Shown: one piece after another, positions 4,171 to 17,558 of the stretch
Layout: the number at the start of each line of letters is the position of its first letter
Numbering within the stretch: the first letter of the stretch is position 1
From: a virus
Lineage: Duplodnaviria; Heunggongvirae; Uroviricota; Caudoviricetes
Reading direction: 5' to 3' (one strand)
IMG/VR virus record: IMGVR_UViG_2547132281_000014
Location: 1 to 40,471 of that record
Length of the DNA: 40,471 nt
The notes under the pieces: generated by a model
Seen by the model: the letters and a program-made list of their open reading frames with translations, nothing else
Database searches by the model: none
What the model was told of the DNA's origin: nothing
Translations under genes and position numbers: made by a program

Positions 4171-4995
4171 TCAGGCGGTGAAAGTACCAATAAAGGTTTC
4201 TACTTTGCTGTCCTTGAATTTCTCAACAAGCAGATCACGAAATTCGTTAGCCATTTCTTCCTGCACCGCCTCCAGCTGAATAATGCGCAGAACCAGTACA
4301 GGACGATCGCCAGTGATAATACTGAGGCGTAATTTAAACGGACGTTCTTTCAGACCTTCAAACGGAACGCATTTAAATTCAAATGCCACTGGCATAATGT
4401 CTTTGGTCTTCGCTTCGACAGACTCCATCAGGGAGCGTTTGCCGCTGAAGTCATTATCTTCAAAATCAGCGGTCTGGTTTGCTTCAATCGTGATTTTACG
4501 GACAGCCGCAGCCGCTTTTGTTGCCTGAATAGCGTCACCATTAGCATCAAAGCCCACAAGATAGTCGGCCCAGTCTTCAATCCATTCTGCTAGTGACTTC
4601 TGGGAGTTACGCTCGCCGTTAACAGACAACAGAGCAGAGAACGGTGCTGTCTTTTTCAGTTTGAGTGTGGCGGTGTTATCTGCGTGACCTGGTTCATCAA
4701 TAGTACCCAGGTTAAGCACACTGACGGCACGCATATTATCAGCATCGATAAAGCAGCGGGTGCCTTCATCTGCAAGATCTTTAGAATAACGGGTAAAGTC
4801 ATCGATGCTGGCAGTGGAAAGCGCACCACGGAAACGGAAGCGATTTAAATTAAATTTTTCCAGATCATGAATGCGGAAATTCTCAGGCAATGCCACAGCA
4901 TCGGCACCAATCTTACTGATAATTTCATTAACACCCTGAGCAGAAATAAGGGCATGGATTTGATTAATTGCGGTTGCGTCTAAGTTCTGAGACAT
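4171..4995 (-). CDS. YfdQ-like protein (DUF2303-type), 274 aa
   Basis: ATG at 4995 with GAGGA Shine-Dalgarno; size and position match YfdQ upstream of the YfdR-like gene. Confidence 0.65.
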
Positions 4996-5891: not shown

Positions 5892-6326
5892 ATGTCCGGT
5901 AATATCTATACGCTGTACAAATCCCACTGTGAAAATGTTGGAAAGTATCGGGGCATTGAAATCAGTGGGGTAGTGTCATCAGTCGAAATAAGCAAAGTTG
6001 AATCAAGGGCAACATTACTTACTCTTTTGGACCTTGTCTTACATGAGCACCGGAAGAAATTCGGCACTCCCTATAATCAGTTGAATGGGAAAAAGGCTCT
6101 GGTTCACCTTATTCTGATGAAGCATCACTGGATGCCAAAACAGATTAATGAGATGAAATTTGATGAACTTCTTCTTTCAATTCAGGATGAACTCACACTT
6201 GATAAAATAAGCGTAACCGCCCAGAAATTTTTAGATTATCGAGACTGGAGAGCACAAATTCATCACTTTGATGATTTTGACGAAAATGAATGGGATCCTA
6301 ATTTGTCTGCACAATATCTAAAGTAA
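5892..6326 (+). CDS. hypothetical protein, 144 aa; AT-rich moron transcribed antisense to the early-left operon
   Basis: ATG at 5892 preceded by AAGGAAAAG; low GC; opposite orientation to all neighbours; two direct repeats upstream and a plus-strand terminator downstream. Confidence 0.6.
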   Translation: MSGNIYTLYKSHCENVGKYRGIEISGVVSSVEISKVESRATLLTLLDLVLHEHRKKFGTPYNQLNGKKALVHLILMKHHWMPKQINEMKFDELLLSIQDELTLDKISVTAQKFLDYRDWRAQIHHFDDFDENEWDPNLSAQYLK

Positions 6327-6504
6327 CATCCTGTGATAAAACCGTGATTTCCTGATCCAGTTTTTTTAAGGAGTCTATTGTTTCCTGTCGATAAGACAGC
6401 ACTTCACGAAGCTGGTTTATAGCTGCCAGCTTCTTTGTCATCCACTCATAAATTTCCTCATCTGTGTAGCCAGGCGCGACGATTTTGGGTTCTGTTTTGT
6501 GCAT
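6298..6504 (-). CDS. hypothetical protein, 68 aa, first gene downstream of the putative PL
   Basis: ATG at 6504 with GAGGAG Shine-Dalgarno 8 nt upstream (the track ORF starts at an upstream TTG); no arginine-rich N-like motif. Confidence 0.45.
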   Translation of the reverse strand: MHKTEPKIVAPGYTDEEIYEWMTKKLAAINQLREVLSYRQETIDSLKKLDQEITVLSQDVTLDIVQTN

Positions 6505-6562
6505 TTCACATCTCCTCAAGTTATCAGTTACTTGTTGATGGGGACCAGATTGTTAAAGAGCT

Positions 6563-6586
6563 AAGCGTCCTGTAGGGCGCTTTTTT
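6563..6586 (+). terminator. putative rho-independent terminator (plus strand)
   Basis: AAGCGTCC-TGTA-GGGCGCTT hairpin followed by TTTTTTG; lies about 240 nt downstream of the 5892..6326 gene, within and antisense to the 68-aa minus-strand gene. Confidence 0.5.
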
Positions 6587-6668
6587 GTTGCTAACGAATC
6601 ATCCTGGACTTCATATGCCCCAGGCGGCTACTTCGTGGGCGTCCTGCCTGTTCGTTGTCGGCAAAATG

Positions 6669-6697
6669 ATATTGCTACTTAAAGTTGCAAAAATCAA
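6669..6697 (-). promoter_or_regulatory. putative PL promoter with embedded operator (OL)
   Basis: Minus strand reads TTGATT-N17-CAATAT; the spacer holds CTACTTAAAGTTGCAA, the same motif as in the PR spacer. Confidence 0.45.
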
Positions 6698-7016
6698 CTA
6701 CAAAAAGTAGAAGTTAAGGGCATAAAAACGCATTTTGAAATTAATTCATTGAATTTACAGGTAAAATATTTTGGGGGCTATGATCAAAAAATTATATTGT
6801 GAAGTTAGCTGAGTTGTAGAACGTGATGGATTGTTTCATTGTGGCTGAGATCAGTATGTGATCTAGTTAATCATCAAGTGGGGAGAAGTCAATCATGAGA
6901 GTATTGTTGAGTTTTTGGAGGCTAAGTGTAAAACGGTAGGGAATTTACTACTCAATGGATTGTGTGATTTAGCCTCGATAGTAAGAAAACTAGGGCAGGT
7001 CATAGTCAAAAACTTA

Positions 7017-7301
7017 TCAAAACATAAATTTGGCGAGACCTAAAATCGCCAAGCCTGTTGCAACAGTCCATGCGATCTGTTTATTTACGGCTGATGAAAT
7101 AGCGCTGTTGACTTCACTTAGGCTAGGTTTTTTTGACAACTTTTCATCTATATCTATTTGTTTTTGAAGGATAACAGCGACATCGCGTCGGGTGTCGGAG
7201 AGAGCGTTTCGCAAATCACGAATGTCAGCTCTCATCTCTGCGAGATTTGTTTTTATATCCTCAACATTCGCTTCTAACTTAGCGACTCGGGCTTCAAGCA
7301 T
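7017..7301 (-). CDS. coiled-coil protein with C-terminal transmembrane helix (XhlA-like architecture), 94 aa; alternative upstream start at 7424 gives 135 aa
   Basis: ATG at 7301 with GGAGGTG 7 nt upstream; heptad-like MLEARVAKLEANVEDIKTNLAEMRADIRDL followed by hydrophobic IAWTVATGLAILGLAKFMF; occupies the lambda rexB position. Confidence 0.5.
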   Translation of the reverse strand: MLEARVAKLEANVEDIKTNLAEMRADIRDLRNALSDTRRDVAVILQKQIDIDEKLSKKPSLSEVNSAISSAVNKQIAWTVATGLAILGLAKFMF

Positions 7302-7368
7302 GTCATCACCTCCGCCATCTCCACCGTGTCTTCTAATTGTGGGAAGTTCACTATTAAATGGTACTACA

Positions 7369-7716
7369 TTATTTTGCGGCGTCGGCATTTTTTTCATCTT
7401 CCGTTTTTGCTGGGAACTTTTCATTTACCCAGTTCAAAACTGAAAACGCATTTATATGAATTTCATTTCCACAATTGTTGCATATTAGTGAAAAGTAATA
7501 CTGGTTAGCAGTATCAGAATAAATGCTTTTTTCAGTAAAAACATTCACATAACTACCAAGTTTCATAGTACATGGCATGCCCACATTCGCGCTGACTTGA
7601 GGCACAGTCAATCTGTCGTGTCCACATAGTGTACATTTTAGATATATATTCTTTTCTGAGAAATAAGAGACCAACATATCCATGTTAATCTTTTCGAATC
7701 CCTGCTCACTAGCCAT
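7369..7716 (-). CDS. zinc-ribbon-like protein, 115 aa (CTLCGH ... CNNCGN), immediately downstream of cI
   Basis: ATG at 7716 with AAGGG Shine-Dalgarno, 15 nt after the cI stop; two CxxC pairs; AT-rich; occupies the lambda rexA position. Confidence 0.6.
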   Translation of the reverse strand: MASEQGFEKINMDMLVSYFSEKNIYLKCTLCGHDRLTVPQVSANVGMPCTMKLGSYVNVFTEKSIYSDTANQYYFSLICNNCGNEIHINAFSVLNWVNEKFPAKTEDEKNADAAK

Positions 7717-7731
7717 TATATGCCCTTAGAA

Positions 7732-8472
7732 CTATAACCGATTGTATTTTATTGACTCATGAATCAACGCCTTGCCCATTACATAAAGCTGATCCTGCGA
7801 TTTTTCATCGATGTACCATTTCTCATAGGCAGGGTTATCCGAAAGAACGGCTAGCTTGTCACCTTGCATTTGAAGACGTTTAACATGAAAAGTCTTACCG
7901 TAAACGAAAGAGTAAATTCCATCAGTCTGGAAGTGACGAACAGAAATGTCGACAAACAGTCGATCTCCGGAAACGAGAGTAGGGGACATACTATCGCCAT
8001 TTACAGTCATAACCTTAATATCATCCTGAGAACGGTTACCGAAAAGAGAACGGGCATGTTCTGTTGTGAACTCAATGGCGTAGAGCACATCAACATAGTC
8101 TGAAAGCATATAGGTTCCAGGTCCTGCGCTAACGCTAAGATCTAAAACTTCTATCCTGTATACGTCGGGTTTTGTTGGATTGGGGATGCTTGCCATTTCC
8201 TTACATCCTTCTCTCTCGCCAACACCATATTCTAAATATGAAGCCGATACCCCCAGAGCCAACGCAAGTTTATTCATGACAGAGGCACGAGGCTTCGCTG
8301 CGCCGATTGTGTATCGCCGCGCCATTTCATATGTAACGCCAACAAGACTTTTGAGTTGGGTGACAGAAATTCCCTTGTTTGTCATTAACTCGTTTAGTCT
8401 CTTGGCGAAATCTGGATACTTCTGTTCTTCTACCATAGGTAGAAGATTACTCACATCACATACGCTCGTCAT
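7732..8472 (-). CDS. CI-type prophage repressor (N-terminal HTH plus C-terminal S24 LexA-like peptidase domain)
   Basis: HTH region GISVTQLKSLVGVTYEMARRY and peptidase motif VNGDSMSPTL; divergent from the cro-like gene across operators; the track start at 8493 is a TTG, and the ATG at 8472 may give a leaderless start. Confidence 0.85.
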   Translation of the reverse strand: MTSVCDVSNLLPMVEEQKYPDFAKRLNELMTNKGISVTQLKSLVGVTYEMARRYTIGAAKPRASVMNKLALALGVSASYLEYGVGEREGCKEMASIPNPTKPDVYRIEVLDLSVSAGPGTYMLSDYVDVLYAIEFTTEHARSLFGNRSQDDIKVMTVNGDSMSPTLVSGDRLFVDISVRHFQTDGIYSFVYGKTFHVKRLQMQGDKLAVLSDNPAYEKWYIDEKSQDQLYVMGKALIHESIKYNRL

Positions 8473-8489
8473 TTCTATTTTAAGTAGTT

Positions 8490-8518
8490 GCAATTCGCTA
8501 CTTTAAGTAGCATTATCC
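8490..8518 (+). promoter_or_regulatory. putative PR promoter with embedded operator (OR)
   Basis: TTGCAA-N17-CATTAT with spacer containing CTACTTTAAGTAG; followed by AGGAG and the cro-like ATG at 8544; inverted AAGTAG/CTACTT half-sites across 8480-8510. Confidence 0.5.
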
Positions 8519-8543
8519 CCTCTGGATTTCAGAGGAGAAAGAT

Positions 8544-8807
8544 ATGTCATCTCAAAACTACACCGAGAAAGCAGTAAAGGCTGCGGGAAAGTCTTTATCT
8601 GAAGTAGCTCGTCGCTTTGGTTTTAAATCTACTCAATCTGTCGCTAATTGGGTAATTAACAATCAAGTCCCGTCGGAACGAGTTTTACAACTTTGTGAGC
8701 TGGGGAACTGGTCCGTAACCCCCCATGAGCTGCGTCCTGATATTTATCCAAATCCAAATGATGGATTACCAGAGTGCTATTCAAAAGTTAGCGGTTCAGT
8801 TGCGTAA
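8544..8807 (+). CDS. Cro-like HTH regulator (YdaS family)
   Basis: First rightward gene after OR; HTH SLSEVARRFGFKSTQSVANWV and ELRPDIY motif recalled from YdaS-type proteins. Confidence 0.7.
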   Translation: MSSQNYTEKAVKAAGKSLSEVARRFGFKSTQSVANWVINNQVPSERVLQLCELGNWSVTPHELRPDIYPNPNDGLPECYSKVSGSVA

Positions 8808-16375: not shown

Positions 16376-16702
16376 ATGCCTCATAACCCAAATACCTGGC
16401 TGGAGTTGGTCCAGAGCTGGTGGCGTGGAGACACACCGCTGGGCGCAGTGATTATGTCGATCGTTATGGCTGGCTTGCGCATTGCCTATTTTGGCGGTGG
16501 TGGTGGCTGGAAACGAAAAACGCTCGAGATTTTGCTCTGTGGTGCTCTGACGCTGACTTTTGCATCCGCTCTTGAGTATGTCGGATGGCCTAAATCTCTT
16601 TCTGTTGCCATTGGTGGCGGCGTTGGGCTGATCGGGGTCGATGCTATTCGTGGGGCTGCAATGAGAGTAATCGGTAATAAGTTTGGTGGCTCTAAGGAGT
16701 AA
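16376..16702 (+). CDS. holin (lambda S-like, three predicted TM segments)
   Basis: 108 aa with hydrophobic segments LGAVIMSIVMAGLRIAYF, LEILLCGALTLTFASALEYV, LSVAIGGGVGLIGVDAI; immediately upstream of the endolysin. Confidence 0.7.
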   Translation: MPHNPNTWLELVQSWWRGDTPLGAVIMSIVMAGLRIAYFGGGGGWKRKTLEILLCGALTLTFASALEYVGWPKSLSVAIGGGVGLIGVDAIRGAAMRVIGNKFGGSKE

Positions 16703-16705
16703 TTT

Positions 16706-17182
16706 ATGCAGGCACTAAATTCCCAGCGTAAAGCTTTCCTTGATATGGTGGCATGGTCAGAAGGAACGGATAACGGGCGACAACCGACACGTAACCACGG
16801 TTATGACGTTATTGTTGGTGGTGAACTGTTTACTGATTACTCCGATCATCCTCGCAAACTTGTCACGCTAAACTCCAAACTCAAATCAACAGCCGCCGGA
16901 CGTTACCAGCTTCTTTCACGTTGGTGGGATGCTTACCGTAAACAGCTTGGTTTGAAAGACTTCTCCCCCAAAAGCCAGGACGCTGTGGCATTGCAGCAGA
17001 TTAAAGAACGTGGCGCTTTACCGATGATTGATCGTGGTGATATTCGTCAGGCTATCGACCGTTGCAGCAATATATGGGCTTCATTACCCGGTGCAGGTTA
17101 CGGTCAGTATGAACATAAAATCGGTGACCTGATTGCCCGATTTAAAGAGGCTGGTGGGGTGGTAAATGAAGTTGAGTTATAA
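16706..17182 (+). CDS. endolysin, lambda R-type lytic transglycosylase
   Basis: 158 aa, near-identical over most of its length to my recollection of lambda R (QRKAFLDMVAWSEGTDNGRQ ... DRCSNIWASLPGAGYGQ). Confidence 0.9.
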   Translation: MQALNSQRKAFLDMVAWSEGTDNGRQPTRNHGYDVIVGGELFTDYSDHPRKLVTLNSKLKSTAAGRYQLLSRWWDAYRKQLGLKDFSPKSQDAVALQQIKERGALPMIDRGDIRQAIDRCSNIWASLPGAGYGQYEHKIGDLIARFKEAGGVVNEVEL

Positions 17183-17558
17183 GCTGACTATCTCTGCTTT
17201 CTTCTTTACTGTTATTGGCTCTTTCATCTGGTCAGCGAATCACTACTACAGCAAATATCAGCACGAAAAGAAACGTGCTGATGAGGCTGTACAAAATGCC
17301 AAATCGGCAACTGCCATTACCAATAACGTCCTGCAATCACTGCAAATCGTCAATACAGTACTGGAGGCTAACCAGCATGCAAAACAGCAGATCGCACTGG
17401 AGTCACAGAGAACCCAGGAAGATATCAAAATGGCTGTTGCGGATGATGATTGTGCTTCACGTGCTGTGCCTGCTGCCGCTGCTGACCGGTTGCGGAAGTA
17501 CGCGGACAGTTTACGTGAGCGTTCCGGTGGCACCACTGCCACCCAGCCTGACTTCTGA
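17166..17558 (+). CDS. Rz-like i-spanin
   Basis: N-terminal TM (ISAFFFTVIGSFIWSANHYY), coiled-coil body; follows the endolysin. Confidence 0.7.
   Translation: MKLSYKLTISAFFFTVIGSFIWSANHYYSKYQHEKKRADEAVQNAKSATAITNNVLQSLQIVNTVLEANQHAKQQIALESQRTQEDIKMAVADDDCASRAVPAAAADRLRKYADSLRERSGGTTATQPDF

Follow-up and report, generated by a model that had tools for sequence, protein, structure and literature searches.

What is carried directly behind the repressor gene of a prophage, and to what end, is the question raised by an E. coli prophage contained in IMG/VR record IMGVR_UViG_2547132281_000014, which was analysed over its full 40,471 nucleotides (hereafter the window). On the minus strand of the window cI is followed consecutively by two small genes, here called A and B, which the initial annotation had placed in the rex position as variable cargo. 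It was in this slot, immediately behind the repressor, that rexAB was discovered as the first abortive-infection system. Its content is described as mosaic, with rexAB and bstA among the genes which this hot spot can carry (PMC8585504), and most of the cargo found there is without assigned function. Our analysis delivers a precise exchangeable cassette, an obligate gene pair across many genera, and a membrane component common to unrelated partners. Given the slots in which it is found, we regard the pair A-B as a good candidate for a new defence system. The main features are as follows.

6712 to 7732, no strand: exchangeable cassette, made up of genes A and B and a non-coding tail of about 305 bp; 1,021 bp, delimited by blastn junctions against four sister prophages.
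7369 to 7716, minus strand: gene A, for a 115-amino-acid (aa) acidic protein, predicted to be cytoplasmic and to have a split zinc-ribbon-like fold; from the list of open reading frames; RefSeq WP_000135661; PHROG 4293.
7017 to 7397, minus strand: gene B, 126 aa in RefSeq (WP_225387180); PHROG 3556; the maximal open reading frame is 7017 to 7424, 135 aa.
7302 to 7388, minus strand: N-terminal partner-specific peptide of B, MPTPQNNVVPFNSELPTIRRH, with the Gly-rich linker GGDGGGDD; conserved with the A subtype and disordered in the model.
7134 to 7301, minus strand: coiled-coil helix of B, residues 33-88, about 56 residues; helix 31-88 in the AlphaFold2 model at a predicted local distance difference test score (pLDDT) of 82-93, with heptads.
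7020 to 7076, minus strand: C-terminal hydrophobic tail anchor of B, IAWTVATGLAILGLAKFMF-COOH; Kyte-Doolittle mean 1.91 for residues 108-122.
7732 to 8436, minus strand: cI-type repressor of 234 aa with helix-turn-helix and S24 peptidase domains; Pfam Peptidase_S24 at an expect value (E) of 8e-17 and HTH_3 at E 2e-5; RefSeq WP_023145979.

The borders of the cassette were given by four sister prophages. In blastn comparisons homology to these stopped at the cI stop codon (7733) and resumed at 6711, at the outer operator of OL, so the variable unit was taken to be 6712-7732. Its G+C content is 37.8%, compared to 50.9% for the window, in agreement with the AT-richness initially ascribed to the pair. 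The cI-cro segment was present in 205 out of 5,426 complete E. coli genomes, and A together with B in 16 of them. Some of the sisters carried, between the same junctions, a gene for a 120-aa member of PHROG 4293 (E 1.7e-33), followed with a 4-nt overlap by a gene for a 210-aa coiled-coil protein. The survey of the slot in related prophages, suggested in the initial annotation, thus returned different occupants behind the same cI, namely A with B, PHROG 4293 with PHROG 5820, and a ParA-family gene, and the description of the pair as variable cargo in the rex position holds. It had also been argued that broad conservation of the locus would make variable cargo less likely. This applies only in part: the specific cassette is rare (16/5,426), while the module family to which it belongs is widespread and recurs in the slot across genera. 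The swapping of cassettes at one junction among otherwise near-identical prophages shows that their function is dispensable for the phage life cycle.

Several additional observations concern the cassette and its alternatives. The commoner alternative behind the same cI (locus L002, 3964-4955, minus strand, and loci L029 and L031) encodes the 120-aa protein, which has four Cys, and the 210-aa protein of PHROG 5820, the latter with one membrane helix and, behind it, about 35 aa of Pro/Gln-rich tail; its architecture can be called analogous to that of B. In E. coli F344, where cI and cro are about 93% identical to those in the window, a 358-aa ParA-family protein occupies the same slot (L030, 1258-2334, minus strand); over some 38 residues it weakly matches the PADLOC candidate PDC-M28B (local match, E 6e-9). 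Just inside the cassette ends, at 6715-6727 and 7716-7728, lies an inverted repeat of 13 nt, TAAGGGCATAAAA / TAAGGGCATATAA, the right arm of which takes in the ribosome-binding site of A. The repeat was considered as a mobility signal and rejected, being absent from the sister cassettes, and is probably due to chance.

Both A and B have many homologues under purifying selection and both are annotated in RefSeq, WP_000135661 and WP_225387180 (126 aa, equal to 7017-7397) being the annotations in a 100%-identical E. coli chromosome. On this comparison the two open reading frames, as initially proposed, are real genes. We could show that gene A encodes what is predicted to be a soluble four-Cys protein: the isoelectric point is 5.3, no hydrophobic segment is present (the best Kyte-Doolittle mean being 0.67), and the two CxxC pairs, C28/C31 and C79/C82, are the only invariant columns in alignments of 50 close-to-moderate relatives and of 60 distant ones. 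Two CxxC knuckles invariant across the family are the four-Cys pattern of a zinc ribbon, and the protein probably binds zinc; the zinc-ribbon-like character read from the letters alone was borne out to this extent. The AlphaFold2 model, built from the 50-sequence alignment, had a mean pLDDT of 80 and consisted of a helix, a beta-sheet and a C-terminal helix. Gene A belongs to PHROG 4293, of unknown function (profile match E 5e-31), and an exhaustive profile search gave relatives in 333 clusters at 50% identity (E <= 1e-3), nearly all of 90-180 aa. Pfam and NCBIfam returned no family at threshold, only sub-threshold zinc-ribbon noise, and the profile search of PDB sequences returned no match. 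A fold search with the model in BFVD gave one unnamed match (E 9e-4). The CpXC family (PF14353), which like generic zinc ribbons and gene A has two CxxC pairs about 50 residues apart, scored 18.3 bits against gene A (E 0.0025), below its gathering threshold of 25.4 bits. Among the 60 distant relatives Pfam found no common family, and one matched CpXC at E <= 1e-3.

Gene B belongs to PHROG 3556, also of unknown function (profile match E 2e-47). In its AlphaFold2 model residues 1-30 are disordered and are followed by a helix at 31-88, a kink at KKPS and a second helix at 93-125. The heptad pattern of the first helix is continuous, with 13 of the 16 a/d positions hydrophobic. The hydrophobic anchor consists of the last 19 residues, and the protein terminates there in the conserved motif [AV]K[FL]x F. 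Neither model nor hydropathy indicated a signal peptide or an exported domain, and window B, like most of its relatives, has essentially no periplasmic part, the chain ending no more than 1-2 residues from the anchor. Taken together, these features show gene B to encode a predicted tail-anchored coiled-coil membrane protein. A profile search of PDB sequences with B gave Lpp/GCN4-type coiled coils only, and the matches in Pfam and NCBIfam were sub-threshold coiled-coil noise only.

The start of gene B had been left between 94 and 135 aa in the initial annotation. The N-terminal peptide MPTPQNNVVPFNSELP and the Gly-rich linker are conserved in the Salmonella and Edwardsiella homologues of B, and the 22 codons upstream of Met-30 which lie outside the overlap with A differ by 6 synonymous and 3 non-synonymous changes. 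Because the peptide is conserved with mostly synonymous differences, the N-terminal extension is translated. The start is therefore placed at ATG 7388 (123 aa) or ATG 7397 (126 aa), of which ATG 7388, giving 123 aa, is probably the conserved one. The 94-aa form, starting at ATG 7301 behind a strong GGAGG, was rejected since the peptide upstream of it is conserved at the protein level. The coiled-coil architecture with a C-terminal membrane anchor stood as first described, and so did the other statements which the initial annotation had made from the sequence.

The two genes do not occur independently in the loci compared. In every A-family locus inspected, the A-family gene was followed by an overlapping B-type gene. 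The phage loci inspected were those of Salmonella phages S107 and SPN3UB, a Klebsiella phage and Enterobacter phage ENT1, and further loci came from Pectobacterium, Xenorhabdus, Photorhabdus, a Cellvibrionaceae metagenome-assembled genome (MAG) and an alphaproteobacterial MAG; pairs were also inspected in Salmonella, Edwardsiella, Klebsiella, Pectobacterium, Pantoea and Serratia. Comparison of these loci establishes A and B as an obligate pair. The B-type proteins have a common layout: a short N-terminal peptide and a Gly-rich stretch come first, then the motif Met-x-x-Arg-[VLM]-x-[KR]-[LI]-Glu, and after it a coiled coil which leads to the terminal membrane helix. In Salmonella and Edwardsiella the A protein is 86-87% identical to window A and its partner keeps the same N-terminal peptide as window B, while the coiled-coil and anchor part is of a different, shorter type. 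The N-terminal peptide of B thus stays with the A subtype when the coiled-coil and membrane part is exchanged. Because the peptide co-varies with the A subtype, we infer that A contacts B at this peptide.

B in turn is not restricted to A. Loci were collected with the B alignment, as the A alignments contained no stretch conserved enough for a locus search. In 79 IMG/VR loci with a B-family gene the overlapping or adjacent upstream gene came from one of three unrelated families: a family of about 145 aa without Pfam match (47 loci), the A family (23) and the PHROG 4231 family of 94-105 aa (8). A fourth arrangement was found in HK544 and VT1-Sakai, where a 93-aa protein is followed by a B-type protein of 183 aa. 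At the level of sequence, it is established that the B-type membrane component is shared among several unrelated partners and that partner exchange is modular. Two variants of B-type genes were recorded apart from these. In Photorhabdus (L014 and L018) the B-type proteins are 210-295 aa long with internal tandem repeats (e.g., SNKIQSVESSL), their genes adjoin baseplate genes, and each is preceded by a gene for a partner of 143-150 aa. In Pantoea (L021, 3552-4291) and Erwinia (L022, 3622-4318) two B-type genes stand in tandem without an A-type or other partner, and those of Erwinia adjoin housekeeping genes.

In 46 of the 79 B-family loci the same strand carried, exactly one gene upstream, a gene for a cI-like S24 repressor; the count was 21 of 45 after dereplication, and 19 of 23 for the loci with A-type partners. 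Pairs downstream of cI-like repressors were seen in ENT1, Pectobacterium, Xenorhabdus, Photorhabdus, Salmonella, Edwardsiella, HK544 and VT1-Sakai, and in the annotations of the latter two phages PRM, the PRM terminator, OL and PL are placed around the B-type pair. In the P22-like phage UPF_BP1 a PHROG 4231 gene and a B-type gene lie after mnt and before gene 16, an interval which, from the P22 map, we take to be the position where P22 carries sieA. The sieA-orf59a-mnt clone mentioned in PMC10883804 agrees with this placement. In siphoviruses of Klebsiella and Pectobacterium and in SPN3UB-like ones of Salmonella, pairs of A/B type are found between the tail genes and the tape-measure gene, a region which in HK97 contains the gene-15 exclusion moron (PMC3594210).

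The setting of A and B in the window was examined for what it says about expression. The prophage, the insertion site of which adjoins proA/tRNA-Thr, also encodes an integrase, a Q antiterminator, a lysis cassette of holin/Rz type, a terminase and tail genes. The segment 6700-8600 is 100% identical to E. coli strain GB089 and several other chromosomes, and a near-identity DNA search of sequenced phages gave no match; on these searches the element is known only as a prophage. The control region contains the following features.

8544 to 8807, plus strand: gene in the cro position, divergent from cI, for a helix-turn-helix protein of YdaS type; Pfam YdaS_toxin PF15943 at E 5e-11; 'transcriptional regulator' in RefSeq.
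8475 to 8487 and 8498 to 8510, no strand: OR-type operators between cI and cro, 13-mers of type CTACTTTAAGTAG.
6675 to 6687, CTACTTAAAGTTG, and 6699 to 6711, CTACAAAAAGTAG, no strand: OL-type operators at the left cassette border, an inverted OR copy.
6850 to 7000, plus strand: stop-riddled remnant of a small convergent gene of PHROG 3975; intact copies adjoin the pair in Salmonella and Enterobacter phage ENT1.

The OR region, which controls cI and cro, recurs as an inverted copy of 57 nt at 6668-6724, and with the operators at 6675-6711 this copy places the pair between cI and OL/PL on the cI strand, as the initial annotation had it. The cI stop codon TAG is at 7732-7734 and the ATG of A at 7716, so that 15 nt separate them, the same distance as first given. 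A ribosome-binding site AAGGG is located 7 nt upstream of this ATG. Gene B overlaps the 3' end of gene A by 20-29 nt, an overlap which allows coupled translation. Scanning for promoters and terminators from cI to the end of gene B gave no terminator-like site, and promoter-like sites at a frequency not above that of shuffled sequence. With the 15-nt gap, this is consistent with the earlier suggestion that the pair is placed for co-transcription with cI, and we infer that cI-A-B would be expressed from PRM in the lysogen.

Other elements were noted around the pair. Two plus-strand hairpins resembling intrinsic terminators, at 6408-6433 and 6563-6582, lie in the interval from OL to the gene at 6298-6519 (minus strand), which is the first leftward one, and the latter hairpin could also impede leftward read-through from PL or PRM. 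At 5892-6326 on the plus strand lies a phage-associated gene of the ECs1072 family (NCBIfam E 3e-46, PHROG 5286), oriented against the leftward early operon and overlapping the 3' terminus of the gene at 6298-6519, which encodes 73 aa. The helix-turn-helix family of the cro-position gene (8544-8807, plus strand) is that of ydaS in the Rac prophage. The OL operators of the Salmonella locus L033 are the same as those of the window. The PHROG 3975 gene, of unknown function, is intact directly after the pair in this Salmonella prophage (4648-4854, minus strand, 68 aa) and in ENT1 (L008, 3684-3911, minus strand, 75 aa), and may represent a third gene of the cassette which can be dispensed with. A search of 6200-8700 against Rfam gave no RNA family.

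Neither protein could be connected to a named family, as the initial annotation had stated. With the Pfam scan reported to E <= 1 and PADLOC-DB v2 (2023) as the defence library, A and B had no match to Pfam, NCBIfam, PADLOC, PDB sequences or PDB folds; in PADLOC, gene B gave only coiled-coil noise (LmuB, E 3e-4) and gene A nothing. They are also not listed in those parts of the DefensePredictor paper supplements that were available. Some relatives of B were more informative. Three B-type partners of A-family genes matched Pfam XhlA (PF10779) over the full length, at E 7.8e-7, 7.7e-6 and 7e-4, although the best bit scores, 29.6 and 26.4, stayed below the gathering threshold of 34.7 bits. One B-type partner also matched a PHROG holin family (E 1.4e-8), and a PHROG hemolysin match was obtained among the B-type partners. 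Window B shares its N-terminal motif and C-terminal end motif with the short B forms. A role of B as the phage's own lysis protein was considered and rejected, since a complete lysis cassette, with holin and Rz-like genes at 16376-17558, is present downstream of Q.

We tentatively favour, while holding it short of probable, the reading in which A-B is a lysogen-expressed, horizontally exchanged two-gene module for phage exclusion, analogous and not homologous to RexAB. PRM would transcribe cI-A-B in the lysogen, and A would dock on the short N-terminal peptide of B. This peptide would be joined by the flexible Gly-rich linker to the coiled coil, which would oligomerise B in the inner membrane, where A either restrains B or senses incoming phage. 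Upon infection by another phage the contact between A and B would change, and oligomers of B would damage or depolarise the membrane in the manner of XhlA/holin-type proteins, ending the infection by abortive infection or premature lysis before progeny is made. A wider proposal, about which we are more doubtful, is that A-B belongs to an unrecognised, widespread and modular anti-phage family in temperate phages of Enterobacterales and beyond. The effector of this family, tail-anchored and XhlA/holin-like with an N-terminal docking peptide, would be a pre-armed hole-former which fires on infection. Its interchangeable sensors would be the four-Cys A family, the beta-rich family of about 145 aa, the PHROG 4231 family and the HK544_041 family, and the cassette would be used in three classic slots for lysogen-expressed exclusion genes (rex, sieA and HK97 gene 15).

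A number of observations weigh against an exclusion function. No system in PADLOC-DB v2 (2023) matched A, B or eight of their relatives and partners, and a literature search gave no paper, experimental or other, on the A/B proteins or their accessions. Window B gives no Pfam match to XhlA at E <= 1, and coiled-coil similarity is a weak guide to function. The binding of A to B was deduced from co-variation only, and the promoter and terminator scan did not find a terminator of the PRM transcript downstream of gene B. Pairs were also found in apparently non-prophage chromosome, between cdaR and dapD in Pantoea and between gap and pgk in the alphaproteobacterial MAG, and the Photorhabdus B-type genes lie inside tail/baseplate clusters. 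The slots themselves could be read in another way, with B in the inner membrane blocking injection, i.e., superinfection exclusion at DNA entry, and A acting as its chaperone or specificity factor. B is predicted to be a small inner-membrane protein in a position of lysogen-type expression, and B-type cassettes take the sieA position of a P22-like phage and the HK97 gene-15 region of siphoviruses, both of which encode inner-membrane proteins that block injection (PMC10883804, PMC3594210). We nevertheless consider such a block unlikely: window B and most relatives would hardly reach into the periplasm, the Pfam scan found no similarity to SieA or gp15/YebO, and an obligatory, translationally coupled cytoplasmic partner drawn from interchangeable families suggests sensing in the cytoplasm. 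An abortive-infection-type mechanism was ranked first because this constant yet interchangeable cytoplasmic partner, and an effector nearly without extra-membrane part, fit intracellular sensing, which on these sequence features is a better fit to A-B than a passive injection block.

The pair could also serve the prophage itself, either as an addiction module of toxin-antitoxin type with B as toxin and A as antidote, or by tuning lysis or the transition from lysogeny to lysis. Gene overlap and universal pairing are typical of toxin-antidote pairs, pairs occur outside prophages too, XhlA acts with a holin in the lysis of PBSX (PMC5589764), and RexAB was reported to help in switching to lytic growth (bioRxiv 10.1101/2021.04.19.439022). 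The window, however, has a complete late lysis cassette elsewhere, to which the pair does not belong; the gene order, with A first and the putative toxin second, and the repressor-operon position fit expression in the lysogen, and free cassette exchange among otherwise near-identical prophages shows dispensability in the phage life cycle. A self-directed role seems improbable to us. Even less credence is given to a moron that serves host fitness and is unrelated to phages, such as a factor for membrane stress or colonisation or one of 'haemolysin' type. One UniRef entry does name a homologue of B 'Hemolysin XhlA', chromosomal copies exist, and morons can have functions other than defence (PMC3594210). 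Yet the label is a family name which does not come from a test, B has neither signal peptide nor exported domain, and temperate-phage slots with a record of exclusion genes dominate the distribution. Phage exclusion by A-B remains the reading we prefer.

A two-gene exclusion cassette behind the repressor, with one soluble and one membrane protein, is known in kind; A and B, however, have no relationship to RexAB or to any of the defence families included in the comparison. If the pair does act in defence, it would add a small module, some 240 residues for both proteins together, in which the sensor can be swapped and the membrane effector is very simple, and which would be attractive for studying how membrane effectors are restrained and triggered. 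Homologues are located behind the repressors of the Shiga-toxin prophage VT1-Sakai and of phage HK544, and a defence function would then have bearing on phage competition in pathogenic E. coli. Should the function be another, A-B still marks a common and unexplained gene pair in a lysogen position.

Among known systems the closest comparison is with lambda RexA/RexB, which acts by abortive infection and is transcribed with cI from PRM. Both pairs occupy the slot between cI and OL/PL on the cI strand, both consist of two genes which are variable cargo in related phages, and both, from the predictions made here, combine a soluble cytoplasmic protein with an inner-membrane protein. A and B, unlike RexAB, have no match to a Rex family in the Pfam scan at E <= 1 or in PADLOC, and their genes overlap. 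RexB is a polytopic membrane protein, whereas B is predicted to be a single-pass, tail-anchored coiled coil. RexB has been described as an ion channel (PMC8585504). The product of gene A is a four-Cys protein of 13 kDa, in contrast to RexA, which is reported to be a much larger DNA-binding protein (PMC11077077). BstA, which causes abortive infection in BTP1-like prophages, shares with A-B the slot downstream of cI and the logic of lysogen expression (PMC8585504), but BstA is a single large protein which associates with DNA and comes with a DNA element for self-immunity, and neither similarity nor a PADLOC match connects it to A-B. SieA of P22 (PMC10883804) and gp15 of HK97 (PMC3594210) are small inner-membrane prophage proteins which block injection, and B-type cassettes occupy slots equivalent to theirs; these two act alone as single proteins of unrelated sequence, while here a gene for a cytoplasmic partner invariably accompanies B. 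XhlA of the B. subtilis element PBSX (PF10779), a membrane protein which PBSX requires for lysis along with its holin (PMC5589764), and small phage holins resemble B in being small and in having a cytoplasmic coiled coil at the N terminus and a single membrane helix at the C terminus. Unlike XhlA, B is extended by an N-terminal peptide and a Gly-rich linker, its coiled coil is longer, and it is encoded in the immunity region and not in a lysis cassette beside holin and endolysin.

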